Position numbers and translations under genes: made by a program
Notes under the pieces: model-generated
What the model saw: the letters and a program-made list of their open reading frames with translations, nothing else
Database searches by the model: none
What the model was told of the DNA's origin: nothing
In this document: positions 15,953-53,024 of the stretch, piece after piece
Numbering within the stretch: the first letter of the stretch is position 1
How the letters are laid out: each line of letters opens with the position of its first letter
IMG/VR virus record: IMGVR_UViG_3300032283_000554
Coordinates: 18,552-82,551 of that record
Strand: one strand, 5' to 3'
Length of the DNA stretch: 64,000 nucleotides
DNA from: a virus
Taxonomy: Duplodnaviria; Caudoviricetes

Positions 15953-15983
15953 ATTTAATATTATACTACAATAAGTCCTAAAA

Positions 15984-17619: not shown

Positions 17620-17624
17620 CTACA

Positions 17625-19854: not shown

Positions 19855-19866
19855 TTTTCTATTATA

Positions 19867-37095: not shown

Positions 37096-37647
37096 TTAAG
37101 ATAGAGTAACGCACAAAATAAGAGAATCTTCTTCTCCTGAATTTGATATATCTTCATTATAAGGGCTTGTAAGAATGCAGTATGCTTCATTAGCACCAAA
37201 AGTTTTTTCTGGGAAAGTGCTTGTCTTTAAACTTCCGTCTAATACAATAAAAAGCTTATATTGCTCATCGCTGTCATCCACTACTTCTGATTCATAAAAA
37301 ACACTATTTGTATACGTAAATGGTTCAGAGTTAGAGTAAGCAATTGTATAATATTTGCTGACTGTTGGGAAAGAACCATTTTTTGTCTGAAAAAGATCTG
37401 CAAGTTTTGTTCTAGTTTCAACAAAAATAGGTTTTACTAAAAATCTTGAATGAGAATAAACAGTCTTAGTCACATTACCATCAACTTCAACATGCTTCTC
37501 TTCATCTGTTGCAGTATTAAGCCAATCTTTGAGTGCAGATATATCTGCTTCCGTCATAGTGAGCAGAAAAGTTTCTTTTGCTGCAACATATGCCCCTGTT
37601 ATTGCTGGTTCATCTCCAGCGTGAGTTACGTCGTCTAGTATTCCCAT
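37096..37647 (-). CDS. Hypothetical protein, possible cupin-like C-terminus
   Basis: FIVLDGSL...ISNSGEEDSLILCV; metal ligands not evident. Confidence 0.5.
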   Translation of the reverse strand: MGILDDVTHAGDEPAITGAYVAAKETFLLTMTEADISALKDWLNTATDEEKHVEVDGNVTKTVYSHSRFLVKPIFVETRTKLADLFQTKNGSFPTVSKYYTIAYSNSEPFTYTNSVFYESEVVDDSDEQYKLFIVLDGSLKTSTFPEKTFGANEAYCILTSPYNEDISNSGEEDSLILCVTLS

Positions 37648-37940
37648 TAGTTTGCTACCTTCCATTCTTCAAATGCTTGAATATCTTCTTGTGTTCCAAA
37701 ATTTGTAACTAAATACTCTTGAGATTCTCTGATCTTTGCAATCTGGTCTTCTTCAGACAATTCTGCAAGTCCTAGGTTTTCCTGGTATGCAATTGTTAGA
37801 TTTCCATCTCTAATTGCTTCATCAGTATCTTCTTTAGACATTGATTCGTTGGCTGCTTTAAATTCTGCAATTAATGCAACGTCAAACTTTGCCCAAATTG
37901 CTTGAACTCTATCTGCAGTAAGTGTTTTGAAAAATCCCAT
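37647..37940 (-). CDS. Hypothetical acidic protein
   Basis: AGGAG RBS; 97 aa. Confidence 0.65.
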   Translation of the reverse strand: MGFFKTLTADRVQAIWAKFDVALIAEFKAANESMSKEDTDEAIRDGNLTIAYQENLGLAELSEEDQIAKIRESQEYLVTNFGTQEDIQAFEEWKVAN

Positions 37941-38203
37941 TATGTATCTCCTTTAATTTTTAAGAATAAGTATATTATACCCTACATATTCTACAGATTC
38001 AATCTTAAAAAGTGCGGCGAAAAGTGAGCCGAAAATTAGAGACCATCATTTTCACCTTCATATAAACTTCTCAAATACTCCATATGAGCTAGCTTTTGTT
38101 CCTCAGAGCCAATTTTATGCTCTACTGGTACACCAGCCCATAGAATAAAAAAGAGGGCGGAAAGAGGAACATCATAAGCTATCATATTAGTATTATACTC
38201 CAT

Positions 38204-38217
38204 GTTTCACGTGAAAC
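38204..38217. promoter_or_regulatory. parS-like ParB-binding palindrome GTTTCACGTGAAAC
   Basis: Exact 14-bp actinobacterial parS core; 15/16 match to TGTTTCACGTGAAACA; intergenic. Confidence 0.8.
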
Positions 38218-38345
38218 CAATTAGGCCTAGATATTAAAAAATAGGAAGATCGATATAACAAGAAAGCAAAGTGCAATAAATCTGATCTTCTTTTTTCTTG
38301 GCCATTCATCTGGCACTCTTACTTGATCCATATTCTACTCCTTTG

Positions 38346-38420
38346 TAGGCCTATTGGGATTTGAACCCAAAGTCGATTGCATATAAGACAATTGCTTTAA
38401 CCAGATTAAGCTATAGGCCC
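38346..38420 (-). tRNA. tRNA-Ile(UAU)
   Basis: GGGCCTA/TAGGCCT acceptor; anticodon arm attgt-CTTATAT-gcaat; GGTTCAAATCC T-arm; no encoded CCA. Confidence 0.85.
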
Positions 38421-38499
38421 TTATATTAGCCTATTATCTGGTACATAATGCCAAGGATGAAAGTCATTACAGTTACTATGGCTATTGCCAAAAGAAGTT

Positions 38500-38607
38500 T
38501 CACTGTTCTATCCCCGTTTTTTTAAAAATTGAATCTAGGACTTCATCCATAGAATCATCTATTGTTCTAGTATGTTGTCTTGAACAGTTTCCACATTCTC
38601 TACACAT
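38500..38607 (-). CDS. Small MCxxCGxC peptide (35 aa)
   Basis: MCRECGNCSRQHTRTIDD...; AGGTG RBS. Confidence 0.5.
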   Translation of the reverse strand: MCRECGNCSRQHTRTIDDSMDEVLDSIFKKTGIEQ

Positions 38608-39125
38608 ACTTATCACCTATTTGTCTTATATCTTTTAATACTTTATCTGGGGATATTAGATTTTAGGAAAGCCCCCCTACCCCCCAAATTTTTTCTTTTT
38701 GGAAAGATAGAGAAAGCAATTCCTGGAACATATATCAACAGATGTTATCTGGTACATATTGAGTTTCAGGGTAAGCCCCCCACAAAGCAAACTAAGTGTA
38801 GCATTTTACTTTTACCAAAGTCAATAGCTTATATAACAGCTATGTTGATCAAGTAGTATCTTACCATATTCCCCGCCATATATTCTAGTTGACTGCTTTT
38901 TAAGATCTATGAAAATGTTAATATATTTTTTACATGTATGATACACAATTTGGGCAAAACGGACATTTTGGATAGTGCGCCCATGTTTTAGCGTGTTTTG
39001 TGATGCATCTCACACGATTTTTTTGTGACTTGCAACACAATGTCCGAATTATACGCATTTTGAATTAGACATTTGTCAGACCCCCATGCTATGCTTAAGG
39101 TATAACAAAAAGAAAGGTGTTCAAG

Positions 39126-39272
39126 ATGAATACATTTGAAAGAATACAGAAAGAGCAAGCGGAAAAGCGTATTGCTCAAAGAATTAAGGATAAGGCTATA
39201 GTAGAGGCTATGTTTTCTAATAACCCTCGCCCTTTAAATAACGCTTACCTACTAGCAAAAGAGGAAAACTAG
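39126..39272 (+). CDS. Small hypothetical early protein (48 aa)
   Basis: GAAAGG RBS after the promoter at 39074; MNTFERIQKEQ... Confidence 0.6.
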   Translation: MNTFERIQKEQAEKRIAQRIKDKAIVEAMFSNNPRPLNNAYLLAKEEN

Positions 39273-39381
39273 TGTGACTAAGGTCACAAAAATACTTTTG
39301 CGACACACCCCCCTAACCTCCCCAATTTGTCAGACCCCCATGCTACAATTACAGAATAACAACAACGAAAGGTCAGAATAA

Positions 39382-39495
39382 ATGACACTAGATGAATACA
39401 AGCAAATGGTAGAGGCTCAACGCCTCGCCTCCCTAGCAATAGCCCTAGAGGCTTTGCGTAAGTCCGATACAATCGCTAAGGAGATGAATAAATAA
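39382..39495 (+). CDS. Small hypothetical early protein (37 aa)
   Basis: AACGAAAGG RBS; TAATG coupling to the next ORF. Confidence 0.6.
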   Translation: MTLDEYKQMVEAQRLASLAIALEALRKSDTIAKEMNK

Positions 39496-39677
39496 TGTCA
39501 TACGCATACTCATACGAAACTAACTCAATCTCTAAATGGGATACCATTCAAGAAGATGTCGCAGACGCATACGCTTACCTTGATGAGGTAGATGAGGAAC
39601 AACCTCCACTAGATGACTTCAATGATGAAGATACAGATGAACTAGCAAAACTATACGCACTAACTTGGGAGAACTAA
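39495..39677 (+). CDS. Small acidic hypothetical protein
   Basis: ORF track; strongly D/E-rich. Confidence 0.65.
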   Translation: MSYAYSYETNSISKWDTIQEDVADAYAYLDEVDEEQPPLDDFNDEDTDELAKLYALTWEN

Positions 39678-39679
39678 TA

Positions 39680-39829
39680 ATGACTATCACTTACTCACTA
39701 TGGGACGGCGCACAATTCTTAGGTTTCTTTACCGCTACTAGCGCAGACGAAATGAATAAGGTTGTAGCAGACTTACAAAAGGTTTCTAAAAATGTTGTAG
39801 CACACATGCGAAAGGTAGAACAGAACTAA
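39680..39829 (+). CDS. Small hypothetical protein (49 aa)
   Basis: MTITYSLWDGAQFLG...; TAATG coupling. Confidence 0.55.
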   Translation: MTITYSLWDGAQFLGFFTATSADEMNKVVADLQKVSKNVVAHMRKVEQN

Positions 39830-40020
39830 TGACTATTGAACTAAATGAATACGGCTTCATGTTTGACATGGGTGATTTTATTTACCTATCCCTATCATGG
39901 GCTTTCCTTATCTTGTCCTCCGTTGTTTTTATCGGTTATAAGATTTATAAGAGAGTGCAAGCACATAGATGGGCATCACTAGTAAAGAATGAACTATCTA
40001 CAGATGAATGGGGTATCTAA
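39829..40020 (+). CDS. Small membrane protein
   Basis: One hydrophobic segment. Confidence 0.55.
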   Translation: MTIELNEYGFMFDMGDFIYLSLSWAFLILSSVVFIGYKIYKRVQAHRWASLVKNELSTDEWGI

Positions 40021-40399
40021 TGAATAGACTACTAACTACTCTAGTGCAATTAGCCCTTATCGTTCCCGCCCTTATCATGGGGCGCATGATGTGGCGCGAG
40101 ATCGTAGCCGACTATAGAGAGTGGGCTAACTCACACTAGCCTAACGGCGTGTCGGCTTGACATTGTCAAGCTGGCCCGCAAAAGAGCGGGGTTATCCACA
40201 GGGTTACGGGGGTTATCCACAACCCCCAGGATTTGCAAGCACGACACGCCCGAGATCCGTGTGAGTTTTATCACATGACTTGAGCGTCTCACATCATGGA
40301 CTTACTCGCTAGTAGTTATCTTTTGTCAGTGGTATCGGCTATAATTGCGGTATAACGAAAAACAGGCGGTAAAGAAATCCGCTACGAAAGGTGGTCGAA

Positions 40400-40576
40400 A
40401 TGACTACAATAAACACACTATGCAAGGCGCATGAGCCTCTTGTTTCTGCTATCTCCGAAATTGGAGATGAACAATTTACACTGTGCATGATTTGCGATAG
40501 CAACATTGAGCGTTACTACTACGATAGTGACCCTGAGCAATTTCCTACATGGACAGATTGGTATGTGACTAAATGA
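40400..40576 (+). CDS. Small Cys/His protein
   Basis: C..H...C..C; ACGAAAGG RBS. Confidence 0.6.
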   Translation: MTTINTLCKAHEPLVSAISEIGDEQFTLCMICDSNIERYYYDSDPEQFPTWTDWYVTK

Positions 40577-40995
40577 GTATTTGGACAAGGTTCGCTACTG
40601 TAAGCGATTACCCTAAAGGTATGATGAACGAATGCGTGTGTGGGCAAGTAGTCCTCGCACCTAAGACACGACATGAGAATTGCGAGAATAAATAATGAGT
40701 ACTTTTGTACCAATTAAATCCGTATGTGGTGCGGTATCCACCACAATAGACATGTATGACTATGAGTTAAATCCTCATGGCGTTATCTGTTGCGATAATT
40801 GCGAAAGCATTTTGTTATGCCGTAAGGCGTGGGACTTTCTTTATAAGGGGAATAAATAATGCCAGTTTTTAATTTTGATTTATCCGTTACTGTTGAGGCA
40901 GATGATTTTGAGTCTGCCTTATCATGGTTAAAGGTTATTCCATTGGAACGCCTTGATTTTATTGTTGTCGATTATACAGAATTAGAGGTTAGCGA

Positions 40996-41190
40996 ATGAA
41001 ATCACAATTAGAAAAAGATTTAGAAATTAAAGAAAGTTTTATTGATTTACTAAATGATGTTTATCCAACTGTAAAAATTGGTTACTCTACTTTTACTCCC
41101 GCCGAAATTCTAGAGTGTTGCGACCCTGTTGCTTTTGCGATTGGTTTAGTAGAACATGAAGATTATTTAACAGAAATGGAAAATGAATAA
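40996..41190 (+). CDS. Small hypothetical protein
   Basis: GAGG RBS; ORF track. Confidence 0.6.
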   Translation: MKSQLEKDLEIKESFIDLLNDVYPTVKIGYSTFTPAEILECCDPVAFAIGLVEHEDYLTEMENE

Positions 41191-41529
41191 TGGAAAAAGA
41201 TATTTTTGGTTTTGCAGATGCAATTGAAATTGAATTGATCAATGAAGAAAATTTAAAAATTGTTGAATTAATTTTTAAAGATTTTAAATAAATAAATCGT
41301 GGCGGTTCGACATTGTCGAGCTGGCCCGCAATATTGCGGGGTTATCCACAGGGTTACGGGGGTTATCCACAACCCCCAGGATTTCCGACACGCCCGACAC
41401 GCCCGAGATTTTGTGATTTTTATCACACGGCTTGAGCGTCTCAAAATGTGGAATTACTGGCTAGTAATTATCTTTTGTCAGTGCTATCCGCTATAATTGC
41501 TACTATCAACAAACGAAAGGTGACAACTA

Positions 41530-41742
41530 ATGTCAGCAAATGTCTATACAATAGAAAGCCTACTTGTAGGAAAAACTTATCACTCACGCACTTTAACAGG
41601 CGAAATTATTGACGCAGAAAAGTCTGATGTCTTTTATGGCAGAGGCTTAGAAAGTTATCGGGTTCAGGTTCGCCCACACTATCCCTCAGTATTTAATCTA
41701 AAAGATACTTATCGCTATCTATCAGTTAAGGTCGGTGACTAA
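41530..41742 (+). CDS. Small hypothetical protein (SH3-like size)
   Basis: First gene after the cassette at about 41300. Confidence 0.65.
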   Translation: MSANVYTIESLLVGKTYHSRTLTGEIIDAEKSDVFYGRGLESYRVQVRPHYPSVFNLKDTYRYLSVKVGD

Positions 41743-42048
41743 TGATTAAAGAATACTTACACGAAACCGAATTTTATTTTGTCAAAGATGAAATAAAAAT
41801 CTGTTGTGATGAACAACAATTTATCCATGTCTGTAAAGCGCATGGCGAGCAACAAGGTTGCTACTTTTGCGAATTTAACCCTTATGAGAATTGCGAGTGT
41901 GAATAATGATTAACTCAGTATTAACAATAGATTGCCAAGATTGCTTTGGTCACGGAGTAATCTTTTTTGGTAATGATAATGATTTCGATTGCGAACCTTG
42001 CGATTGTGTAAATGACGGCTCACTATTTTGGAACGGAGAAAATAACTA

Positions 42049-42255
42049 ATGTATAAACTAACTTGCGCTTATGACTCAAATGCTCCGCATTGGTCAGCGG
42101 AATACGAAAACGAATTTGGTGCTTGGGAAAACTTTTTCCTATTTACCGATTGGGGATTTGCTGATGAATACGCAACTGTAAATCTTTACACACCTAGCGG
42201 AAAATGCCACACGAAAATATTTTATCGTGAAGGCAGAAGGGTCGTAATTAAATGA
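42049..42255 (+). CDS. Small hypothetical protein
   Basis: GGAG RBS; ORF track. Confidence 0.6.
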   Translation: MYKLTCAYDSNAPHWSAEYENEFGAWENFFLFTDWGFADEYATVNLYTPSGKCHTKIFYREGRRVVIK

Positions 42256-42414
42256 AAACTTTTGAATTTCTAACTTACATAAATGTAGAAGCAGAAAATT
42301 ATGATGAAGCCATAGATGTATTTCAATTTCAATTAAAATACGGAATAAATAAAGATAATGTCTATGTCGCAGACATAACAGATTTAACTATCGAAAGCGT
42401 AGAGGTATAAAAAA

Positions 42415-42606
42415 ATGATGACAAGAAAAGATTATGTCGCGGTTGCAGAAATTTTAAATTATGCAAGCGATAAAACTCATCCCGCTGTATTTTCTAAAAT
42501 GGTAAATGATTTCGCTGAAATGTTTGCGAAAGATAATGAGCGATTTGATGTAAAGCGATTTCATGAAGCGAGTGGGTATCATGTCCCAAAACTCACTACG
42601 AGATAA
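42415..42606 (+). CDS. Small hypothetical protein
   Basis: MTRKDYVAVAEIL...DNERFD..RF. Confidence 0.65.
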   Translation: MMTRKDYVAVAEILNYASDKTHPAVFSKMVNDFAEMFAKDNERFDVKRFHEASGYHVPKLTTR

Positions 42607-42979
42607 AGTAAAGCGAATTCAGGAATTGCGTCGCAGTAATGCGGCGCAACCTGTTCGCAATAAGAAAAAATATTTTCGCAAGATCAAGCACAAAAATAAA
42701 ATTGCAGAGTAATGCATAGTTATGCAGGCCCGCAATACTGCGGGGTCGGGCGTGTCGTTACGGGTGTGATTAAAATCACCCTGGATTTTTGTTAAAGCTC
42801 TCGGCGTGTCTTAGATAATGTCAGCCCATTCTGCTATACTTGCCATTCAACTAACGAAAGGCTCATCCCATGGATTTCTATGATGACTACTATGAAACAG
42901 ATATGCTACGCCCTGACGCTAAGTCATGCTATTGCAAGGTCAATTTAATTTGCACTAATTGCGCGGAGAGTTATAACTA

Positions 42980-43702
42980 ATGACTAAACTAAAACGATCT
43001 AACGATAGAAAGGTGGCTAACCTTGTCACAAAAAACGGAAAGCAAGCGGCAATTGCCAATACTTTTGGATTACCCGCAGGAAAAGCATATTCATGTCCTG
43101 GAGCGACTAGCATATGCGAAAGTGTTTGTTATGCTGGGAAACTTGAAAAAGTATTCCCAACAGTAAAAGTTAATCTATTACACAATTGGGAACTATTGCG
43201 TAATGCTGATTACTTAACCATGCTTAATCTGATATCTGAGATGATTGATGAATTCAAGGCTGACTGTGTAAAAAAGAATGCGCCTATGCTATTCCGCATT
43301 CACTGGGACGGCGATTTCTTTAATGATACTTATACTACTGCATGGTCTGATGTAATTAAACTTAATGATGATGTGCAATTTTGGGTTTACACCCGCGTTA
43401 AGTCTGCCGCGCTTATTCTTAAGGATATATCTAACCTATCTCTTTACTATTCAACGGATGATGACAATAAGGAGATAGGTCATGAACTAAAAAAGAATGA
43501 GGGTATCCGTCTTGCTTATCTAGGCAAGACATTTGCCGTAACAGAAGACACAATGAAAGAATTGACGGGCAAGCCTGGCGCTAAGTGTCCTGAGAATATG
43601 AAAAGCATTCCGCTAATTAGCAATGCGGGATCTGCATGCGTGTCATGCGGTTTGTGTGTTTACGGGAAAGCGGATATTAGATTTTCTGCAACTAAAAAAT
43701 AA
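42980..43702 (+). CDS. Gp88-like Cys-rich (radical-SAM-related) protein
   Basis: SCPGATSICESVCYA; FRIHWDGDFF; FWVYTR; CPE...ACVSCGLC. Confidence 0.7.
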   Translation: MTKLKRSNDRKVANLVTKNGKQAAIANTFGLPAGKAYSCPGATSICESVCYAGKLEKVFPTVKVNLLHNWELLRNADYLTMLNLISEMIDEFKADCVKKNAPMLFRIHWDGDFFNDTYTTAWSDVIKLNDDVQFWVYTRVKSAALILKDISNLSLYYSTDDDNKEIGHELKKNEGIRLAYLGKTFAVTEDTMKELTGKPGAKCPENMKSIPLISNAGSACVSCGLCVYGKADIRFSATKK

Positions 43703-43900
43703 ATTGCAGCGTGTCGGCTTGACAATGTTGAGCTGGCCCGCAATATTGCGGGGTTATCCACAGGGTTACGGTGGTTATCCACAACCCCCTGGAATTTGTG
43801 AGATTAATCACAAAATAAATTAGATAAAGCTTGGGCGTGTTGCATAATTTGTCAGTGGCATAGTCTATAATACTCTTATACCAACAACGAAAGGCAATAA

Positions 43901-44104
43901 ATGAAAATAGAACATAGTCTAAAGTTTGTTACAGAGTTTAAGGAAGGCCACCCTATAACTACACAAATGAAAATGCTTGATGAAGGCACTCGCGTAATAA
44001 TGCTAGAGTCACTACTAAAAGAATTAGTCGGTAGCCGACTACAACCTATCCTTGATGAAATAAATGAAAATGGCTCATACGCAATTCTAAAGGTGGCAGA
44101 ATAA
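43901..44104 (+). CDS. Small hypothetical protein
   Basis: First gene after the cassette at about 43710. Confidence 0.65.
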   Translation: MKIEHSLKFVTEFKEGHPITTQMKMLDEGTRVIMLESLLKELVGSRLQPILDEINENGSYAILKVAE

Positions 44105-44376
44105 TGGGATACACAACAGCGTTAGACTTATCAGAAAACTTAGACATAACACTAGAACAGGCAATCGGTTATCACTTACAGGGTAATCACTATCCACCCG
44201 TTCCGCTTTCTATGGTGCAACCTTGCATTGATGCTATTGATGCTATTCATGCGGGTGATGGCGATACGCCAATAGCACTTCCTGAAGGTGTTAAATACAA
44301 GGATCGAACAACAGCACCCGCGTGGGCAATCGCTGAGCAGCACCACTTAGAAGCGTGGCTACCTGAGTGTGACTAA
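44104..44376 (+). CDS. Hypothetical protein
   Basis: HLQGNHYPPVP...HHLEAW. Confidence 0.65.
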   Translation: MGYTTALDLSENLDITLEQAIGYHLQGNHYPPVPLSMVQPCIDAIDAIHAGDGDTPIALPEGVKYKDRTTAPAWAIAEQHHLEAWLPECD

Positions 44377-44472
44377 GGTCACACAATAATTATCTCAAAT
44401 GCTGAGACAGGGCTAGACTAATGTCAGACCCAAATGATACAATACTAACCTAACAAAGAAAAGAGGCAATAA

Positions 44473-44655
44473 ATGACAATCAACGACAAGTTGTACCAAG
44501 TAGGGGATTTATTCACTACACTAAAGTCAAAGAAAACAGGTGTGATTAAGGAAATCCACCCACAGGCATCTGGCTCGGTGCGTGTGCTACTAGAAATGCC
44601 AACGAAAGAAACTCGTTGGACTTCGGTATCCGCTCAAACGCTACTAGGCGTATAA
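44473..44655 (+). CDS. Small SH3/KOW-like protein
   Basis: YQVGDLF...TGVIKEI...VRVLL; has its own promoter. Confidence 0.55.
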   Translation: MTINDKLYQVGDLFTTLKSKKTGVIKEIHPQASGSVRVLLEMPTKETRWTSVSAQTLLGV

Positions 44656-44748
44656 TCTAAAGGCAGGTGGGTCGCAGAAATGTCAGACCCACCTGCTATA
44701 ATTAAAACTTAATAAACCCACTAAACCCACAACGAAAGAAGGCAACAA

Positions 44749-45171
44749 ATGGCACGACAGAAAGCAATTAGCGTTAAAATCGCAACACCAAAGGTAATCA
44801 AGGCACTCGAAACTGCACTAGCAAAGTTAGAGGCAGATTACGCATCACAAGAAGCAAACGAAGCAAAGTATCAGAAATTGCATGAGAAATGGATTAAGGA
44901 ACTTTCAGCCTATGCGGTGGAAAACATCAAGAAGGCAGAAAACTTCCGTACTAACTATCGCTCATGGAATAACACTCTAAACATTGACTTCGATTTGACA
45001 GTATTAGCAAAGGATTTGCCAACAGAGCCTGAAAAGGATTTCGAGTCAATTTCTCTCTATAACTATCGTGAGCAGAAAGAGGAAATCTCTAATGCTATTC
45101 GTATTCTAAAGATGACAGATGAGGAAGTAGTTAGCACAAGCACTTACAATGCGGTTGCTCGTTACCTCTAA
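44749..45171 (+). CDS. Hypothetical coiled-coil protein
   Basis: Own promoter and RBS. Confidence 0.7.
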   Translation: MARQKAISVKIATPKVIKALETALAKLEADYASQEANEAKYQKLHEKWIKELSAYAVENIKKAENFRTNYRSWNNTLNIDFDLTVLAKDLPTEPEKDFESISLYNYREQKEEISNAIRILKMTDEEVVSTSTYNAVARYL

Positions 45172-45241
45172 ATAATCCAACAACCTGAGTATGTTGCTAA
45201 ACTGCTCTCCTTTCGGGGACAACTACTAACAAAGGCAAATA

Positions 45242-45496
45242 ATGAAAAATCGTTTCAGAGTAGAAATCTATGATGCAAACAAGAGTAATGATGTAACAAT
45301 TTATTCAGAGCAAGGTGTAGATAAAGAATACTTAACTGAGTTAGCATTCTCTAATAGAGGAAATTTCTTAGGTGATGTACGTGCTTATGTCTATGATACT
45401 TTAAAGAAGACTAAAACAACTGCTCTTTACCTCCCGTCCGAAGTTATTAACTTCAATCGCAAAAATCAATTAACCAGGGATGAGTTGGGTCTGTAA
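45242..45496 (+). CDS. Hypothetical protein
   Basis: ORF track with AAAGG RBS. Confidence 0.6.
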   Translation: MKNRFRVEIYDANKSNDVTIYSEQGVDKEYLTELAFSNRGNFLGDVRAYVYDTLKKTKTTALYLPSEVINFNRKNQLTRDELGL

Positions 45497-45692
45497 GGAT
45501 CCAACACTGGCTGCATATGCAGCTGGCCCGTATAGCTAAGGGGTTATCCACAGGCTTACGACCACTTGTGGATAACCCCTGGAATTTGTGATAATGATCA
45601 CATCTCAAAATGTGGACATATAGTAACTAATCATAGACAATGTCAGTGGCAGATGTTATACTTATGACTAATCAAACGAAAGGTAAAAAATA

Positions 45693-46700
45693 ATGGCTCA
45701 TAATCTGGAAATGGAAAACGGCGAAGTTGCTTTCGCACTTCGTGGCGCACCTGCATGGCACAACCTTGCAAATCGCATCTTTACACAAGATGAAGATGTT
45801 ACAACTCAAATGATGTTAGATGAGGCAAAACTTTCCAACTGGAATGTTCGTCTGTCTCCACTAACTGACCACATCTCAGATACATGGAACGATGTATCTA
45901 ACGCATCTCTTGTCATTCGTGACAACCCATTCAACAATGGAACTGATGTTCTCGCAACTGTCGGCAAGCGTTACAAGCCTGTGCAGAATGAGGAACTATT
46001 TGCATTTGCTGATGCAATTCACGATGCCAATGCTGATTGTCGCTGGGAGTCTGCTGGCTCACTTCGTAGCGGTAAAGTAGTATTTGGAACTGTGGACATT
46101 CCTCGCACAATGGTGCTTGACCCACAAGGCGCAAATGATGCAACTAAGTTGTATCTAATTGTTTGGACTTCACACGATGGTTCTGTTGCTGTTCAGGCAG
46201 CCGTTACTCCTGTTCGTGTTGTTTGCCAAAACACATTGAACCTTGCAATGCGTAATGCAAAGCAATCATTCAAAATTCGTCACACTCAATCTGTTGAGGG
46301 TCGTATTCAGGTTGCTCGTGAAACTCTTGGGCTTGCTCTTGGTTACTTCGATGAATTTGAAATTGAGGCTAAGGCTCTATTTGCTCAAGCAATTACAGAT
46401 GCTGAATTCTCTAAGTTAATTCAGACAATCTATCCTAAGCCTGACAAAGATGCGGCAAAAGTTGCATTAACTAAGTGGGAGAATAAAGTCGTGCTTCTTG
46501 ATGACCTTTATCATAACTCACCAACTAACGCTAACATCAAGGGAACTAAGTGGGGTGCGTTCAATGCACTAACTGAACGCCTTGACTACTATCGTTCAGG
46601 TCGCGGAAATTCTGAAACACTTATGGCGGGTGCATCAGGGTTTGACCCAATTCTAACTGCTGAAAAAAACAAAATCAAGAAATTGGTTTCTGCTTTTTAA
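45693..46700 (+). CDS. DUF932 / TIGR03299-like phage-plasmid protein
   Basis: PAWH...YKPVQNEELF...ESAGSLRSGK...TSHDGS...TPVRVVCQNTL...RHT...GTKWGAFNALTE. Confidence 0.85.
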   Translation: MAHNLEMENGEVAFALRGAPAWHNLANRIFTQDEDVTTQMMLDEAKLSNWNVRLSPLTDHISDTWNDVSNASLVIRDNPFNNGTDVLATVGKRYKPVQNEELFAFADAIHDANADCRWESAGSLRSGKVVFGTVDIPRTMVLDPQGANDATKLYLIVWTSHDGSVAVQAAVTPVRVVCQNTLNLAMRNAKQSFKIRHTQSVEGRIQVARETLGLALGYFDEFEIEAKALFAQAITDAEFSKLIQTIYPKPDKDAAKVALTKWENKVVLLDDLYHNSPTNANIKGTKWGAFNALTERLDYYRSGRGNSETLMAGASGFDPILTAEKNKIKKLVSAF

Positions 46701-46746
46701 ATAAATAATTCCTGAGCATGAATAAAAACTGCTCACAATTTTTATT

Positions 46747-46823
46747 GATCCATTAGCTCAGTTGGTTAGAGCGCTACCCTGTCACGGTAGAGGCCGTCGG
46801 TTCAAGTCCGATATGGGTCGCCA
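46747..46823 (+). tRNA. tRNA-Asp(GUC)
   Basis: GATCCAT/ATGGGTC acceptor, ctacc-CTGTCAC-ggtag anticodon arm, GGTTCAAGTCC, encoded CCA. Confidence 0.92.
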
Positions 46824-46924
46824 AGGCCCGTATAGCTAAGGGGGCAAAAAATGTGTTACGAGTCACAAAAGAAAATCCCTGGAATCTATTGTAAATGTCA
46901 GTGGGCTCCTGTATAATTCTCTTC

Positions 46925-47581
46925 ATGACCAACGAAACCATATCAAGTAAGTATACATTTGTCTGCGATCCAGATGAATGCGATTGTCTAATAGAACTAA
47001 CATCATCTGACGGGTTTGGATTCCCTTCAGGTGTGACCGAACTCACATGCCCGTGTGGTCGCAAGACTACATTAGTGTCAGTGGAGCATGCTACAATTGC
47101 ACCAACAAACCAAACGAAAGAGGAAACAATGGAAACAACAGATACAACAGTATCACCTGCAGTAGAGTACAACCCTGATTTATTGGTTACCTACAAAGTA
47201 ATTAGTGGATACTCAGACCCAACATATGCTACAGACAAAGTCCGCAACATTGAATGGGAACTTCATAACTCCCGAACTAATTCAAAGATTGCTTCAGTCT
47301 TAACAAATAAGATTGCCATGGCTAAGGATGTTCTGTCTGAAGCATATGCTGACTCACTTGACCAAGAAACACTTCAAGCAATTGCTGAAGCGCTAGACAT
47401 TCCTTTAGTTAAAGAGATTGAATGGTCTGCAACTATTGAGGTTAGTGGAACATTAACAATTGATTTGCTTGAAGGTGATGTAGATGTTGAATCAGAAATC
47501 TACGACAATCTTTATGTTGAATCACAGAACGGCAACATTGAAGTAGGAGATGTTGAAGTTACGAATGTTCGTGAGAACTAA
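46925..47581 (+). CDS. Hypothetical protein (N-terminal Cys cluster, acidic C-terminus) with an internal promoter and start at 47129
   Basis: ATG 7 nt after TATAAT; a second promoter plus RBS lies inside the frame. Confidence 0.6.
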   Translation: MTNETISSKYTFVCDPDECDCLIELTSSDGFGFPSGVTELTCPCGRKTTLVSVEHATIAPTNQTKEETMETTDTTVSPAVEYNPDLLVTYKVISGYSDPTYATDKVRNIEWELHNSRTNSKIASVLTNKIAMAKDVLSEAYADSLDQETLQAIAEALDIPLVKEIEWSATIEVSGTLTIDLLEGDVDVESEIYDNLYVESQNGNIEVGDVEVTNVREN

Positions 47582-47784
47582 TGTACTTTGAACTCACCGC
47601 TCCCGATAGGCTATCAATGGAGATGGCTTATTGGGATGCACAAATAACTGGACTTGACCCTCAAGCAATGTCACCTTTGACATTCAACATAGGAACTGGT
47701 AGTATTGAGAAAGTAAGTCGTCTTAGAGATAAGTACAACTTAATTGAATCTTATGTATCAGACTACGAAACCACAGGTTATTAA
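47581..47784 (+). CDS. Hypothetical protein
   Basis: TAATG coupling. Confidence 0.6.
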   Translation: MYFELTAPDRLSMEMAYWDAQITGLDPQAMSPLTFNIGTGSIEKVSRLRDKYNLIESYVSDYETTGY

Positions 47785-47936
47785 GGAGAAATTATGTCAG
47801 AGTATAAAGATGGTTGGGCAGATGGTTATAAGTTTGCTCGTGATGAAATCATGGAAAAGTTATCAGAGATTGATATTAATGATATCGATTCTTGGATTCT
47901 TGACCGTCTATCTGAGATGATCGAAGGTGGAAAACT

Positions 47937-48128
47937 ATGATGGCTGAATGGCTTAAGTGTGACCAATGTGCAGCACAGGCTATGTGGGAAGCAAAGAAAG
48001 ATTCATTCTCTCTTTATTTCTGCGGGCACCATAAAAATGAGCAGGGCGAAACCCTTGTGGACTGGGCTCATGAGATGGTACAATTACTCAATTACGACAA
48101 ACAACTACAACTAGAAACGGCGGAATAA
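47937..48128 (+). CDS. Small zinc-finger-like protein
   Basis: CDQC...FCGHH. Confidence 0.6.
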   Translation: MMAEWLKCDQCAAQAMWEAKKDSFSLYFCGHHKNEQGETLVDWAHEMVQLLNYDKQLQLETAE

Positions 48129-48129
48129 A

Positions 48130-48495
48130 ATGGGAGATAGAGCAAACTTTGGATTCAGAGATTCCAAGGAGAATGTAGTATTTTTATATGGACACTGGGC
48201 TGGCCATAACATGCTAGCCAAGTTAGCAAATGCTGTGCAGGCTGCAGAAACTCGTTGGCAAGATGAGTCATATGCAACACGCATTGCTATATCTAATCTA
48301 ATTGGAGAAGACTGGACTCAGACAACGGGCTGGGGAATTTATGTTAACCAATTAGGAGACAACGAACATAAGGTGCCCGTCATTGATTGGGCTAACCAAA
48401 CCTTTACATTGTATGAAGAGGACCTGAGCACGGTAGTGTTTAGTTCAACATTATCTGCATTTGTAGATAAATACAGTCGACTAGTTATGGTATAA
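48130..48495 (+). CDS. Hypothetical protein
   Basis: MGDRANF...LYGHWAG...DESYATRI. Confidence 0.7.
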   Translation: MGDRANFGFRDSKENVVFLYGHWAGHNMLAKLANAVQAAETRWQDESYATRIAISNLIGEDWTQTTGWGIYVNQLGDNEHKVPVIDWANQTFTLYEEDLSTVVFSSTLSAFVDKYSRLVMV

Positions 48496-48500
48496 TAGTA

Positions 48501-48648
48501 TCAGGACAATGTCCTGGTTTTAATATAGAAATGAAATGGTGCGTCTATTAGTCTACGGGCCAGGCGCTAAGTAAAGCGGTTTATTTCTTTCGTTGGAAAT
48601 CAGCAGCCATATTCATACCCCCCAGCTTTTAGCTGGGGGTTTCTTTTT
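48501..48648 (+). ncRNA. Candidate structured sRNA with anti-RBS loop
   Basis: TGGTATAAT promoter at 48488; multi-stem fold with a UACG tetraloop and a UUUCGUUG loop; terminator at 48617-48648; no ORF. Confidence 0.6.
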
Positions 48649-48823
48649 GCCCGCAAAGACTTGAGGGTAACATATTGTTGTTACGATTGTCAAATATATT
48701 TCCCAGGAATTTGTGTGATCTTGACCACAAAGCTGAATCATGTGGTGTGTATCACACCAATTTGCTATTCCATTTGTCAGTGGTCCATTGTATAATTAGA
48801 ACATATCAACGAAAGGATATAAA

Positions 48824-49558
48824 ATGCCAAATTGGGTATTTAATGGATTAACTATAGAAGGTAATCCTGAGCAAGTAAAATCTCTAATTACACAAATGAA
48901 TAAGCCATTCATCTATTCTATCACTGCAGTAGGTGATTTAGCATATGATGTTAAGCAAACTAAGTTTATTAATCCTATCTTTGCTTTTCATAATATCTAT
49001 AACTATAGAGATGCTGGTATTACTGATGAGGTATATCATGGACAACCTCCTCGTTCCACCGATTTTTCTGAGGCAATGAAGTTTGAGACCAATGACTGGT
49101 ATAACTTTAATGTCCGTGAGTGGGGAACAAAATGGGATGTTGCTGTAGCAGAAGACAATATTTATCCTGACACAACTATTGAAGAAGCCGAGAACGGTGA
49201 GAACTATGTAGTCCATTACAACTTTAACACTGCATGGTCACGACCTCTTGGTGCTATCTCTAAATTATCTGCACAATACCCAACACTACTATTTACTTTA
49301 TCATATGAAGAAGAAACAGGCTGGGGTGGAGAAATGGAATTCCTCCGTGGAGAAGTTATATCAGAATCAGAATACGATAACATGTGCCGTGATTGTGATG
49401 CAACTGACCAAATGGAATACTGCGACAATGATTGCGGTGAAATCTGTAGCAACTGCAACTGGCTTGGCGAGGCAGACCTAGAGGCTGTCGCAATTTGTCA
49501 GACCCATAAGATATACTTAGACACTAAAGTACCCGAATACAGAAAGGCGGAAGCATAA
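48824..49558 (+). CDS. DUF1281/YubB ferredoxin-like domain protein
   Basis: MPNWVFN...DWYNFNVREWGTKWD...FNTAWSRP...YEEETG. Confidence 0.75.
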   Translation: MPNWVFNGLTIEGNPEQVKSLITQMNKPFIYSITAVGDLAYDVKQTKFINPIFAFHNIYNYRDAGITDEVYHGQPPRSTDFSEAMKFETNDWYNFNVREWGTKWDVAVAEDNIYPDTTIEEAENGENYVVHYNFNTAWSRPLGAISKLSAQYPTLLFTLSYEEETGWGGEMEFLRGEVISESEYDNMCRDCDATDQMEYCDNDCGEICSNCNWLGEADLEAVAICQTHKIYLDTKVPEYRKAEA

Positions 49559-49770
49559 TGGAAGCATTTACAGATACAGTAGGAGAACATATCCTTGGAG
49601 CAATTCAAGTAGATATTGAGCAAGCATTATTTGAAGATTGGAATAATGCTAACTTAGATGAGGGAGAAGCATTTGCTGAATATCGTTTCATGCAATTTGC
49701 TCCTGATAACTTAAAACAATCATACAATGAATACTATGGATATATTGAGGGAGATGAGTTCTGCTTATGA
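49558..49770 (+). CDS. Small acidic protein
   Basis: ORF track; coupled start. Confidence 0.6.
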   Translation: MEAFTDTVGEHILGAIQVDIEQALFEDWNNANLDEGEAFAEYRFMQFAPDNLKQSYNEYYGYIEGDEFCL

Positions 49771-50045
49771 TGCTAGGATATGATAAAAAGGATTTAGATA
49801 CTATGATTAACTCAGTACATGATGCTAAGTTATTCTATCTTCGATCACCGTCCGATTTAATGGACAAGACAGAACTTAGAACTAATTTGGAGATGACAGT
49901 TAGTTTTCTCCAGGGATTATGGGCAGAAGGGTATTTTGACTAATGCATAATCATTATTGGGAATGTGATGACATTCCAGGATACTTTTATTGTGTTTGCG
50001 GAGTTACCGCAATACATAATAGAGAAACGGGAAAGAAGGATATTC

Positions 50046-50252
50046 ATGACTAAGTCATCACACTTCCTGGAATATATGAAGATACATAAGATTAGTTTAG
50101 AACAAGATTTAGAGGATGCTAGAAATAACATCCCTATATCTGAAGATGAATACTTTGAATCAGATAGTTATTACATGGGTGCCATTGATACTATGGAACA
50201 TATTTTGTCAGTGGCCTCTGATATAATGATTGACAACGAAAGGGTATATTAA
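50046..50252 (+). CDS. Small acidic protein
   Basis: AAGGA RBS before the ATG at 50046. Confidence 0.55.
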   Translation: MTKSSHFLEYMKIHKISLEQDLEDARNNIPISEDEYFESDSYYMGAIDTMEHILSVASDIMIDNERVY

Positions 50253-50382
50253 TGACACTGGATAATGTATTAGATAAGATTGAGTCTATTATAGATAGCA
50301 CTCATTCTGTTGTTTCCCCGCTCCAAATGGAGCATTGCAAGTATTGTACAACTTGGCTAACTCTTACAGAATTGGTGGCATA

Positions 50383-50652
50383 ATGAATTCAGAAGACATC
50401 GGGCTCCCGCCCCATTTGCAACGCTTGGTCAATGCAGGTGTTAGTGGATTAGATATAATGCACGGTGAACTAAAGAATCTAATGTTAATTGCTGAGCAAG
50501 ACCTAGCAAGCGCACTAGAGCAGGAGGAGTTGTCTGAAGAGGCAATGGATTCTATGGTCCGAACAGAATGTGAAGGGCGCCTAGATATGCTAGTAGAACT
50601 ATATAATTTAACATACCAACTATCATTTGCAATTGGAGAACGCACACTATGA
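50383..50652 (+). CDS. Hypothetical protein
   Basis: MNSEDIGLPPHLQRLV... Confidence 0.6.
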   Translation: MNSEDIGLPPHLQRLVNAGVSGLDIMHGELKNLMLIAEQDLASALEQEELSEEAMDSMVRTECEGRLDMLVELYNLTYQLSFAIGERTL

Positions 50653-50963
50653 AACCTGAAGATAAAGATAAACTAAACAAGTGTCTAGAGATTCTAGATG
50701 ATACAGACTTAGGCCTATCATTAGTTTGGCTATGGACATGGTCAACAATTAATAACATCCTAGAGGATGACACATATGTTGCCAAGGTAACCCAAGATGA
50801 CATGTGGAACCACATGTGTGAGGCTGTGGAGGCTGGTATGGGCTTCTCCTTGGAGTGGGGCGCCGAGCAACATCAGGAAGAAGTTTTAGATTGGATGATG
50901 AGCAGGGACTACATCGTAGACCCTGAAGATGAAGAGGAGGAGGACGAAGATGAAGATGAGTGA
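50649..50963 (+). CDS. Acidic hypothetical protein
   Basis: C-terminal DPEDEEEEDEDEDE. Confidence 0.65.
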   Translation: MKPEDKDKLNKCLEILDDTDLGLSLVWLWTWSTINNILEDDTYVAKVTQDDMWNHMCEAVEAGMGFSLEWGAEQHQEEVLDWMMSRDYIVDPEDEEEEDEDEDE

Positions 50964-51089
50964 TAAGTATCTAAACGATCAACTTAGTACAGCCCAAAAG
51001 CTTTTGTGGGGTGGGTCCGAAACAGAAAACATTGAGGCACACAACATCATTGCTAAATTAATTAAGGATAAGATAGAACAGGTGGAACT

Positions 51090-51272
51090 ATGAGCAAAGA
51101 ATTTAAAGTCTATGGAGACATTATTCAAGACTACTACATTATTGTAGAAGCCAAAGATAGTGATGAGGCATGGTACAAAGCAGTAGCCACACCTAAAAAG
51201 GAATGGAAAAAGAATACCCCTCGCAAGGACAAGATAGAACCTTATCAAGTAGAAGAACTAACAACTGAATAA
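51090..51272 (+). CDS. Small hypothetical protein
   Basis: AGGTGG RBS; ORF track. Confidence 0.55.
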   Translation: MSKEFKVYGDIIQDYYIIVEAKDSDEAWYKAVATPKKEWKKNTPRKDKIEPYQVEELTTE

Positions 51273-51419
51273 AGATAGGTTGGGCCGTTATGGACAATTC
51301 GGACATAACGGTCATAATCTAAGGGCACGGGCAAAAATTTTGCTTTACGGCACCTATTTACAAATCGCCGAAATTCGGATATAATATATATAACAACTGA
51401 TCTAGAAAGGATCAAACAA

Positions 51420-51572
51420 ATGACATCAACACCAACAACAACTCGTGAATACCTAAAGACCCAGGGAATTTCTGTGGGCAAGCGTGGCCGCTTCTCAGCT
51501 GCAGCTCTAGGCGTTATCAGCAAAGCTGTGCAAGAGGGCGTAGTCTTCTCAGACAAGAAGAACGCTAAGTAA
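51420..51572 (+). CDS. Lsr2 DNA-binding-domain-like protein (50 aa)
   Basis: Read manually: MTSTPTTTREYLKTQGISVGKRGRFSAAAL..., matching the Lsr2 C-terminal R-x-W/Y...G..V..RGR AT-hook pattern; AGAAAGGA RBS. Confidence 0.65.
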   Translation: MTSTPTTTREYLKTQGISVGKRGRFSAAALGVISKAVQEGVVFSDKKNAK

Positions 51573-51685
51573 CAAACTAAGTGTGGGGATCCTCCTCTCT
51601 GTGGGAAACGGGAAAGGGGAGGGTCCTCGCTTCATTTACAAATGTCAGTGGTCAATGGTATAATCAAAACGAAAGGCGGAACTCA

Positions 51686-52069
51686 ATGGCTAAAGCGAAC
51701 GAATTCAAAGCAGCAGAAAAACTAACAGACTATCTAAATAATGCTAACTTCTCACCTGCCGTAATGGCAAATGTATTAACAACTGAACATACCTTGTATA
51801 CCCAAGATAGGCTAATGGAACTAGTTAAATATATTATCCATTATAATGCTCTTAGATTTAATACAGAATGGGAAAAAGGACAAACATCCGAAGGATTAAT
51901 GCTAGCAGATGCTCTCAACGGAATGCTAGAGGCAAAGTATGGACTAAGCGAATCAGTCCAGGAACACATCAATCAATCACCTGAATTAAATAAGGGCGGG
52001 TACAAGAACTCTTGGGTTCATGATTATGATACTAGTAATAGAGTAGTAATAGATCATCCATTCATCTAA
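51686..52069 (+). CDS. Hypothetical protein
   Basis: Promoter at 51643 and AACGAAAGG RBS indicate a start at 51686. Confidence 0.65.
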   Translation: MAKANEFKAAEKLTDYLNNANFSPAVMANVLTTEHTLYTQDRLMELVKYIIHYNALRFNTEWEKGQTSEGLMLADALNGMLEAKYGLSESVQEHINQSPELNKGGYKNSWVHDYDTSNRVVIDHPFI

Positions 52070-52568
52070 GATAACTTCCCCTATGGGGCATATGGCTTTA
52101 ATTAGCTATATGTCCCATTTTTTATGCCCATCTTATGGGCCAAATTTTCTCTTTACGATCACATATAAAAAACCCCTGGAAATGTATAATAAATCTAATA
52201 TAATCTGTCAAAATGTGCATAGAATATCTCATTATATGAGACAAATAATGCAGAATCTGACAGAATTTTTTGCCATAAATATGGGCCAAAATTGCTCTTT
52301 ACGAAGCAAATATAAATTTCCTGGAATTTTTATATGAAAGCTATTGACAAATATTGGCCAATATGCTTTATATGGGCCCTATTGACATTACGATGCCCAT
52401 CTGATATCGTGGCCCATTACAAGGGTATATTCAACTATATATAATGATAGTATTTGGACATAAATTGATAGTATGATTCTCCACTTTACTCCACAATACT
52501 CCACTAAATAAGCCTCTAGGAGGCTGATACAAGGGAGATTAAAGGGAGGGGGATAGAATAGTTAGGGC

Positions 52569-52868
52569 TTACTTTGGAAAATATGCTGTATTGCCTCTTA
52601 TGTTACTGTTGTAGTGAGAGGCTGAATTGGCATTAGATTTCCATTGCTTTAATACCGTATATGGCATTTCATATTCATATGGACCAGGATATGGTTGAGG
52701 AGCTCTCATTATAACCTTATATATACCATTGTCTTTATCTATTAAGGTAGCCTTTATTTCAGCTTTCCCGCCTGGAAATGGATCTTTACCTTCTCCACTA
52801 AAAGTTCCATCCCATGACCCTTTACTTGCAGACATGGTAAACGATATATTATCTGGAAAACTTATCAT
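52569..52868 (-). CDS. Hypothetical protein, possibly KTSC-like C-terminus
   Basis: YEYEMPYTVLKQW..NANSASHYNSNIRG; leaderless start. Confidence 0.5.
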   Translation of the reverse strand: MISFPDNISFTMSASKGSWDGTFSGEGKDPFPGGKAEIKATLIDKDNGIYKVIMRAPQPYPGPYEYEMPYTVLKQWKSNANSASHYNSNIRGNTAYFPK

Positions 52869-53024
52869 ACGTCTATTCTACCATTATCTTGCTGAGCATG
52901 TAAGGCATATGAATGGGTCATCATCTTGCTTGATATATAGTTGCTTACATTGAGTACATGCTACCTTATATGGCTCATAGCCCTTGACATACTTCTCATA
53001 GGATGATTGAAACTTATCCATAAT

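Follow-up and report, generated by a model that had tools for sequence, protein, structure and literature searches.

A small-gene block with putative promoters resembling PafBC-dependent promoters in a lake phage of actinophage lineage

Introduction

The closest described counterparts of the sites that we report here are the PafBC (RecA-NDp) promoters of Mycobacterium and other actinobacteria. Their consensus has been printed as tTGTCRgtg - 8 nt - TannnT (PMC5656591) and as tGTCgg(N10)tA(N3)T, whose upstream portion lies at -28 to -23 and which has no -35 box (PMC8635444). Structural and ChIP work assigns the motif to PafBC, which is reported there from almost every actinobacterial species, and the same source likens PafBC to the "sigma appropriation" of phage T4 (PMC8635444).

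In the middle promoters of T4, an upstream box stands in place of the -35 box and a protein links the DNA to sigma domain 4, as we propose for our sites. Unlike in T4, we found no phage-encoded activator, and the reader that we propose is a host protein. Also, the consensus of the T4 MotA box differs from TGTCAG in both sequence and position. A third comparison is with class I CRP/GlxR-dependent promoters, in which a 16-bp palindrome lies upstream on one face of the helix. Finally, the Streptomyces phage Karimac (Stanwilliamsviridae) has a homologous block of genes with promoters of another type. We found no paper that describes the promoters that we discuss here.

Results

The phage and its small-gene block

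The record is an 82,551-base siphovirus sequence with 38% G+C, and the window is the whole 64-kb stretch of it that we analyzed. Judging from its genes, the phage is a member of an actinophage lineage, because all 4 complete relatives have whiB, the portal protein shares 58.9-59.2% identity with its counterparts in Streptomyces phages, the phage encodes an Lsr2-like gene, and there are leaderless-type starts on the - strand. The original prediction had taken Mycobacterium to be the host. This was not borne out, and we reject the idea of a mycobacteriophage, given the low G+C content and given that a sequence look-up placed pieces of the record in runs from lakes and other freshwater. Our one scan of bacterial genomes for the promoter motif returned only phage contigs that had been binned into non-actinobacterial MAGs.

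The only long block of + strand genes in the window consists of about 40 small ORFs whose proteins have no assignable function (Table 1). We presume that it is expressed early. Terminator-like hairpins are common in and around it (21 in 37500-53500, versus 10.1 expected). The one near its end lies across the first bases of the last ORF in the list (52083-52337) and is close to the junction with the converging - strand genes.

A composite motif ahead of the small genes

The pattern TGTCAG-N10-TAnnnT has 16 exact matches in the window, all on the + strand and all between 39074 and 51664. In 100 shuffles of the sequence, the mean was 0.77 matches (sd 0.80) and the largest number was 3. The entire record has the same 16 forward matches and no reverse ones, while a backwards version of the pattern, as a control, gave 2 and 0. 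TGTCAG alone occurs at the chance level (34 versus 31.0 expected), which means that only the composite pattern is in excess. The spacing is strict as well: on the + strand, no site has a 9-nt or 11-nt spacer.

These sites are where promoters should be. At 14 of the 16, there follows a ribosome site of the GAAAGG type, with an ATG 21-54 nt past the -10 box, which agrees with the 14 promoters of this form that had originally been claimed. One more is placed for a leaderless start, with its ATG only 7 nt past the -10 box; it heads a 218-aa ORF (46925-47581) whose coding sequence is conserved in relatives. A further promoter inside that ORF heads an in-frame 150-aa form. This makes 15 sites that are correctly placed ahead of a start codon. 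The remaining match lies within the first codons of an ORF and is probably due to chance; the same match within the ORF recurs in relatives.

The sites fall into two classes. The core reads TGTCAGTG at 9 of the 16 sites, and at 6 others (N)CCC takes the place of the "TG" after the core. The sites have no -35 box. Across 182 unique sites from IMG/VR, no position from -37 to -30 carries more than 0.31 bit, and only 6 of the 16 sites in the window have a TTGACA-like hexamer (at least 4 of 6 bases) at 16-19 nt from the -10 box. The housekeeping layout, with such a hexamer 16-18 nt 5' of the -10 box, is not what we see at these sites, and sigma-70-type -35/-10 pairs are not enriched in the block region (60 versus 53.2 expected). 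The best explanation of these patterns is that the 15 sites are promoters of the small-gene block, in which TAnnnT is the -10 box, a -35 box is lacking, and TGTCAG occupies -28 to -23 without variation.

It had also been suggested that the virion genes lack TGTCAG promoters and use TGn-TAnAAT instead. This is roughly right. TGnTAnAAT is enriched in the window (41 versus 22.1 expected, with 27 on the - strand). Of those 27, we viewed 23 in context (leaving out 11002, 11425, 48915, and 54818), and the -10 box lay 6-8 nt 5' of a listed ORF start in 5 cases (13958, 19854, 53891, 56301, and 57835).

Table 1. Features of the small-gene block, with positions in the window
Feature	Position	Strand	-10 box	Start codon or remark
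Small-gene block, about 40 small ORFs	39074..52337	+		presumed early; from ORF lists
Promoter, ACCC class	39074..39095	+	TATGCT	ATG 39126
Promoter, ACCC class	39328..39349	+	TACAAT	ATG 39382
Promoter, TGG class	40324..40345	+	TATAAT	ATG 40400
Promoter, TGC variant	41476..41497	+	TATAAT	ATG 41530
Pattern match, probably chance	41531..41552	+		within first codons of ORF starting 41530
Promoter, CCC class	42819..42840	+	TATACT	ATG 42870
Promoter, TGG class	43850..43871	+	TATAAT	ATG 43901
Promoter, ACCC class	44422..44443	+	TACAAT	ATG 44473
Promoter, ACCC class	44681..44702	+	TATAAT	ATG 44749; family-conserved 140-aa protein
Promoter, TGG class	45641..45662	+	TATACT	ATG 45693; DUF932 / TIGR03299 protein
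tRNA-Asp	46747-46823			within the block
Promoter, TGG class	46896..46917	+	TATAAT	ATG 46925, leaderless-type
Promoter, TGG class	47076..47097	+	TACAAT	ATG 47129; inside ORF 46925-47581
Promoter, TGG class	48775..48796	+	TATAAT	ATG 48824
Promoter, ACCC class	49496..49517	+	TATACT	ATG 49558
Promoter, TGG class	50206..50227	+	TATAAT	ATG 50252
Promoter, TGG class	51643..51664	+	TATAAT	ATG 51686
Terminator-like hairpin, then T run	52083..52118	+		near block end
CRP/GlxR-type palindrome	starts 38999			
CRP/GlxR-type palindrome	starts 39024			
CRP/GlxR-type palindrome	starts 39273			
CRP/GlxR-type palindrome	starts 40260			
CRP/GlxR-type palindrome	starts 41412			
CRP/GlxR-type palindrome	starts 43797			
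CRP/GlxR-type palindrome	starts 44368			
CRP/GlxR-type palindrome	starts 45587			
CRP/GlxR-type palindrome	starts 46852			
CRP/GlxR-type palindrome	starts 47032			
CRP/GlxR-type palindrome	starts 48714			
CRP/GlxR-type palindrome	starts 48741			

CRP/GlxR-type boxes

Upstream of 10 of the TGTCAG promoters there are palindromes of the form TGTG-N8-CACA, mostly TGTGA-N6-TCACA. In all there are 12 (versus 0.93 expected), spanning 38999..48756. Measured from the inferred transcript starts, their centers span roughly -54.5 to -95.5, and most follow a series with a step of about 10 nt: near -54.5, -64.5 (two), -74.5 +/- 1 (four), -84.5 (two), and -95.5, with -70.5 and -81.5 off this series. So far as the boxes themselves go, this is the class I CRP/GlxR layout, including the increments of about 10 bp between most of the distances. 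Unlike at class I promoters, the boxes are combined with a -26 element. Given such boxes at ten promoters, other host regulators are probably involved too.

Relatives and Karimac

Clusters of TGTCAG sites on a single strand are present in all 10 relatives that we examined, with 4-25 sites each, although the ORFs shared with these relatives range only from 11 of 82 to 37 of 70. When we relaxed the pattern to NGTCNN-N10-TAnnnT in seven blocks, 84 of 96 sites still had TGTCAG. In one relative (G011), the orthologue of the 45641 site reads TGTCGG, which the "R" of the printed consensus allows. The motif-bearing records that we examined all come from a single, broad lineage of phages.

Karimac's block is homologous to this one: three shared proteins are 45-50% identical, the portal is 59% identical, and there too many small genes each have their own promoter and terminator. 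Its promoters, in contrast, consist of 17 TAGACT boxes with TTGNNN -35-like hexamers 16-19 nt ahead (13 of 17 match at 4 or more of 6 bases), and it has no TGTCRG-N10-TAnnnT sites at all. The comparison suggests that the TGTCAG box may have functionally replaced the -35 box of a Karimac-type block.

Search for a phage-encoded reader

We found no support for the proposal that the phage encodes a PafBC-like activator of its own. Among 5 records, including 4 complete ones, none has a match to the WYL family. Pfam scans of 67 + 54 ORFs of the record and of the 88 ORFs of a complete relative (G002) found no WYL protein, sigma region 2, or RNA polymerase. Similarly, no homologues of WYL proteins, PafB, MotA, AsiA, or sigma factors appeared when we scanned the record with Pfam, PHROGs, and NCBIfam and G002 with Pfam, so an activator of the T4 type, if present, would have to be an unrecognizable analogue. 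One block protein (44749-45171) is kept in every relative with coverage of the block. It is predicted to fold into a helical hairpin and a beta hairpin, with no helix-turn-helix (mean pLDDT 81.8), and this fold has no structural matches at E <= 0.001. Outside the block, G002 encodes whiB and two small HTH-like ORFs.

Discussion

How similar are these sites to PafBC promoters? The PafBC/RecA-NDp consensus given in the original prediction is indeed in print (PMC5656591, PMC8635444). The phage sites agree with it in sequence, in position, in the exact 10-nt spacing of a 22-nt layout, in the lack of a -35 box, and probably in their actinobacterial setting. Nevertheless, there are differences. The phage sites are dense, at 15 in 12.6 kb, and they precede small genes without assigned functions rather than repair genes. 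Their core is invariant, while positions 5 and 6 of the mycobacterial motif are conserved in at most half of the sites. The TGTCAG(N)CCC class is absent from the printed consensus. Also, the phage's host is probably a low-G+C bacterium.

The reading that we favor, although it could just as easily be wrong, is that host RNA polymerase reads the TGTCAG promoters through the host's PafBC. The polymerase with its housekeeping sigma factor would recognize these promoters only with an adaptor at the -26 element, and the most likely adaptor would be the host's own PafBC, a WYL-domain activator that is switched on by single-stranded DNA and that acts by "sigma adaptation", wedging itself between sigma domain 4 and the DNA. 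The signal could be supplied by entry of the phage DNA or by damage to the host's DNA. We infer both that the host has PafBC and that PafBC binds at these sites. We favor this reading because of the motif and its geometry, the match to the printed consensus, the missing -35 box, the kinship to actinophages, the failure to find a phage-encoded reader, the conservation in relatives, and the replacement of Karimac's -35 box. It is weakened by the stricter phage core and by the (N)CCC class. It is also weakened by Karimac, which has no such sites even though its host uses RecA-NDp promoters (PMC5087735). Furthermore, it would be risky for the genes that fire first to stay silent unless PafBC is activated. 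A more specific version, which we hold more tentatively, is that PafBC acts as an entry sensor. The first genes would not be expressed before single-stranded DNA is present, whether it comes from the entering genome or from damage to the host's DNA; PafBC would then adapt the housekeeping polymerase to all 15 promoters together, with the CRP-type boxes reporting on the host's physiology. No other phage is known to start its program through a DNA-damage activator of the host, so this one would be the first. In function, it would parallel plasmid leading regions with their single-strand promoters.

A factor that is encoded by the phage or delivered with the virion might read TGTCAG instead, as MotA and AsiA do in T4, and the block would then be the second temporal class of genes and not the first. 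Its likeness to PafBC would reflect convergence on a bypass of sigma domain 4, or else a captured PafB-like reading head that has diverged too far to be recognized. Because all of the motif-bearing records are from one lineage, the conservation of the motif could follow a lineage-specific factor hidden among the roughly 40 unannotated proteins, and the core is invariant. The whiB gene and the two HTH-like ORFs of G002 are candidates outside the block, and WhiB-type proteins bind sigma domain 4. Nevertheless, we consider a phage factor unlikely, as our scans turned up no homologue of a known reader, the block protein kept in every relative with coverage has neither a helix-turn-helix nor a structural match, and the block opens with a TGTCAG promoter, with no separate "first" class of promoters in sight.

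It seems about as improbable that the reader is some other host protein (ClgR, another sigma adaptor, or the housekeeping sigma factor itself), in which case the promoters would be constitutive or be controlled by some signal besides DNA damage. ClgR was reported to read the motif of RecA-independent promoters, and it recognizes the recA P1 region according to work cited in PMC5656591. In addition, sigma adaptation by further factors may be widespread in actinobacteria (PMC8635444). The PafB contacts that PMC8635444 describes do not account for the (N)CCC class or for the invariant bases at -28, -24, and -23, and the CRP-type boxes also fit with other host proteins. On the other hand, the later structural and ChIP work gives the motif to PafBC (PMC8635444), and our data do not point to any particular alternative. 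We give very little credence to the idea that TGTCAG is an operator at which a repressor would silence the block. The box is invariant, and operators typically lie between -35 and -10, but there is no -35 box for a repressor to occlude: the region that corresponds to Karimac's -35-like hexamers is nearly free of information here, which leaves TGTCAG as the only conserved upstream element. Also, the element is short and asymmetric.

If the promoters are read by host PafBC, then what would this mean? So far, the only genes known to be under sigma adaptation by PafBC are the repair genes of the host itself, and lake phages of a very abundant family, built around this type of promoter, would be evidence that viruses make use of it too. 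There would be dozens of natural, near-consensus promoters for testing how sigma adaptation works, and the comparison with Karimac is a clean swap of promoter type inside one homologous block, which makes it a useful natural experiment. Finally, the timing of phage genes in the most abundant freshwater bacteria would be tied to DNA damage, for example from sunlight, or to the entry of DNA.

A rigid promoter motif ahead of the small genes

The original prediction held that an early region is driven by 14 promoters with an invariant TGTCAG, exactly 10 nucleotides, and then TAnnnT. The motif holds up: a pattern scan of the window found 16 matches to TGTCAG-N10-TAnnnT, all of them on the + strand and between 39074 and 51664, as compared to a mean of 0.77 matches (maximum 3) in shuffled window sequence. 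TGTCAG by itself is at the chance level (34 observed in the window vs. 31 expected). The spacer is rigid, with N10 at 16 sites in the window and N9 or N11 at none, and the entire 82,551-base record has 16 forward and 0 reverse matches, none of them beyond those in the window. Loosening the box to NGTCNN adds two matches in the block, and allowing one mismatch adds one. No convincing gene start can be assigned to any of these extra matches, and the ribosome-binding site and ATG behind one of them are those of the overlapping promoter at 47076. Window 48475-48518 has AGTCGA-N10-TATAAT with a terminator-like hairpin directly 3' of it; this motif, which is conserved in the complete relative G002, may represent a weak variant promoter or a small RNA.

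At 14 of the 16 sites, an ATG with a GAAAGG-type ribosome site follows 21-54 nt past the -10 box. At the site at 46896, the ATG (46925) comes 7 nt past the -10 box and opens a 218-amino-acid ORF (46925-47581). Relatives conserve the coding sequence of this ORF, so we think that its start is leaderless. The ORF has a second promoter of the same type within it, at 47076, which heads an in-frame form of 150 amino acids from the ATG at 47129. The match at 41531 is probably due to chance, as it falls among the initial codons of the ORF that begins at 41530. This leaves 15 plausible promoters for about 40 small ORFs. Nine of the 15 have TGn immediately 5' of the -10 box. The bases after the TGTCAG core are TGG or TGC at nine sites, (N)CCC at six, and CAA at one, the chance site; the (N)CCC subclass, which lacks the usual TGTCAGTGG, is retained at orthologous positions in relatives. 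There are also 21 terminator-like hairpins between the block's units (10.1 expected). We infer that these genes are early from the architecture of the block alone.

Many of the promoters have another element upstream. Window 38999-48756 contains 12 CRP/GlxR-type palindromes (TGTG-N8-CACA, mostly TGTGA-N6-TCACA) vs. 0.93 expected, all 12 are upstream of block promoters, and their centres are mostly at about -54.5, -64.5, -74.5, -84.5, and -95.5 relative to the inferred transcript starts. We considered whether the upstream TCACA hairpins were plain terminators and rejected this, as most of them are CRP-type palindromes.

Coordinates of features in the window and of related phage contigs
Feature	Location	Strand	Remark
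(N)CCC subclass of promoters	39074, 39328, 42819, 44422, 44681, 49496	+	TGTCAG(N)CCC in place of TGTCAGTGG
Extended -10 box 6-8 nt 5' of an ORF's start codon	13958, 19854, 53891, 56301, 57835	-	5 of 23 inspected
Similar to Karimac gp8	42980-43702		50% identity
Similar to Karimac gp3	45693-46700		49% identity
Similar to N-terminus of Karimac Lsr2-like gp7	51420-51572		45% identity
2OG-Fe(II) oxygenase ORFs and accompanying genes	16449-22735, 36439-37089, 54565-55101, 57035-57835, 59923-60762		11 oxygenase ORFs, 7 in tandem
Phage contigs of the family binned in MAGs	L209-L211 (MAGs G006, G007)		78 kb, 24 kb, 110 kb

Conservation of the motif

The stricter pattern TGTCAGTGG-N7-TATAAT is present in at least 188 stretches of IMG/VR. 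Among the matches listed, most are in low-GC contigs with several matches on the same strand, and nearly all have the same type of ribosome site, and then an ATG, downstream. All 10 of the relatives that we examined (G001-G005 and G008-G012) have 4-25 sites clustered on one strand, while a backwards-pattern control in the same relatives gave 0-2 matches. Some of these relatives have only a part of their ORFs in common with the phage genomes G000/G002 (11 of 82 in G008, 13 of 40 in G009, 28 of 76 in G010, 37 of 70 in G011, and 21 of 55 in G012) yet keep the sites, so the box has outlived most of the genes that it drives. Seven blocks have 96 NGTCNN-N10-TAnnnT sites between them, of which 84 have TGTCAG; the orthologous DUF932 promoter of G011 is a TGTCGG variant. 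In 182 unique sites, no position from -37 to -30 exceeds 0.31 bit, so a -35 box is absent, and A or T occupies positions -31 to -29.

An actinophage lineage

The portal is 58.9-59.2% identical to those of Streptomyces phages of about 131 kb, such as Karimac, and whiB is present in all four of the complete relatives in IMG/VR (112-115 kb). Together with an ORF that resembles the N-terminus of Lsr2, this implies that the family is an actinophage lineage. We conclude that the phage is not a mycobacteriophage; the G+C content along the window is 31-43%. No cultured phage gave a close match at the DNA level. IMG/VR estimates that the record is 69% complete. It encodes the parts of a siphovirus (portal, protease, capsid, tail tube, and a tape measure that extends beyond the window), as well as a class II ribonucleotide reductase, GroES, and many 2OG-Fe(II) oxygenases, which are accompanied by DUF6065, Asp/Arg hydroxylase, JmjC-like, and radical SAM/SPASM genes. 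The ORF with the tape-measure domain (window 1-4752 plus 9585-18599 of locus L009) has roughly 4,570 codons, an unusual length given that the genome is only about 115 kb. A search of Rfam found three tRNAs only.

Extended -10 boxes (TGnTAnAAT) are enriched in the window, with 41 observed (27 on the - strand) vs. 22.1 expected. Where such a box lies 6-8 nt before a start codon, the gene probably has a leaderless mRNA. Leaderless starts are common in actinobacteria.

The Lsr2-like ORF encodes just 50 amino acids and matches Lsr2-like proteins (PHROG 6269 and Karimac gp7) only over their N-terminal 40 residues. A near-consensus TTTACA-N17-TATAAT lies upstream, at 51357-51385. The protein may act as a dominant-negative partner for Lsr2, the host's silencer.

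Parts of the phage family are present in lake, freshwater, and wastewater runs, and in four runs the share of sampled words present is 5-14%. Of 30 bins, 26-30 are covered by contigs from four libraries, three of them lake or freshwater RNA libraries and the fourth probably a DNA library, but these contigs do not reveal transcript starts, strand, or transcription. We also looked for hosts. A relative's RecA matched three loci in bacterial genomes, all of them on phage contigs within "Bacteroidia" and "cyanobacterium" MAGs. In these MAGs, whiB is located on C31 and C49, which are the phage contigs with RecA, and also on contig C51. The best 120 matches to the phage RecA are phage copies only (87-92% identity), and its identity to cluster representatives is just 31-60%, so RecA did not lead us to a host recA promoter. 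Similarly, the phage GroES matched only viral clusters in a protein-atlas search.

What reads the promoters?

The PafBC consensus that the original prediction gave is in print. The in vivo motif is tGTCgg(N10)tA(N3)T, with its 5' part at -23 to -28 and no -35 box (PMC8635444), or tTGTCRgtg-8nt-TannnT (PMC5656591). The phage sites share this layout base for base, but the (N)CCC class falls outside the printed consensus, which is mycobacterial. PMC8635444 also describes PafB R46 and R50 as reading the GTC triplet, and states that RNA polymerase with SigA alone cannot recognise PafBC promoters and that almost every actinobacterial species has PafBC. Furthermore, PafBC is reported to be activated by single-stranded DNA (PMC11804915), and a 2025 paper in ACS Infect Dis, cited in PMC12848934, deals with pafBC and mycobacteriophage resistance and may be relevant to the question of whether phages require PafBC. 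Searches of the literature for PafBC with phage promoters, for RecA-NDp, and for pafBC with mycobacteriophage found no account of such phage promoters, and the letters of the motif, searched for as text, turned up nothing but primers. From the sequences, the likeliest reading, to which we give about an even chance, is that host RNA polymerase-SigA would read these promoters through the host's PafBC.

The phage might instead encode its own PafBC-like activator, as the original prediction allowed, but we did not find one with WYL, Pfam, PHROGs, or NCBIfam searches. Six-frame searches found the WYL family in none of five phage records (7 of 14 control genomes matched). Pfam gave no match to a WYL protein, to sigma region 2, or to RNA polymerase among 67 + 54 ORFs of the record or among 88 ORFs of G002 (25.7-80.7 kb, omitting three ORFs that cross locus borders). 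In G002, the sole regulator-like matches, which are whiB and two ORFs with sub-threshold helix-turn-helix similarity, lie outside the block. Neither PHROGs nor NCBIfam identified a regulator within the block, and the only addition from NCBIfam was TIGR03299. The block protein that is kept in every relative with coverage of the block, a 140-amino-acid protein at 44749-45171, has a confidently predicted fold (mean pLDDT 81.8). It has neither a helix-turn-helix nor a DNA-binding fold, and a fold search matched it to nothing at E ≤ 0.001. A phage factor concealed among the unannotated small proteins seems unlikely to us, and we would say the same of another host component, such as another sigma adaptor or ClgR, which is also reported to recognise the motif (PMC5656591). 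It is very improbable that the box is an operator for a repressor. A sigma-54-type -24/-12 promoter can be rejected because the sequence does not fit and because actinobacteria are not known to have sigma-54.

Karimac has a homologous block in its first 11.7 kb, which contains 26 small genes. The strand of these genes has 17 TAGACT -10 boxes, and the opposite strand has none. A -35-like hexamer lies 16-19 nt upstream of TAGACT in 13 of the 17, while just one has GTC at -27 to -25, and Karimac has no sites that match TGTCRG-N10-TAnnnT. Thus, in a single lineage, the lake clade swapped a -35 box for a -26 box, which is exactly how a hybrid promoter works. PMC5087735 indicates that Streptomyces uses RecA-NDp promoters, so the presence or absence of PafBC in the hosts does not simply account for the swap.
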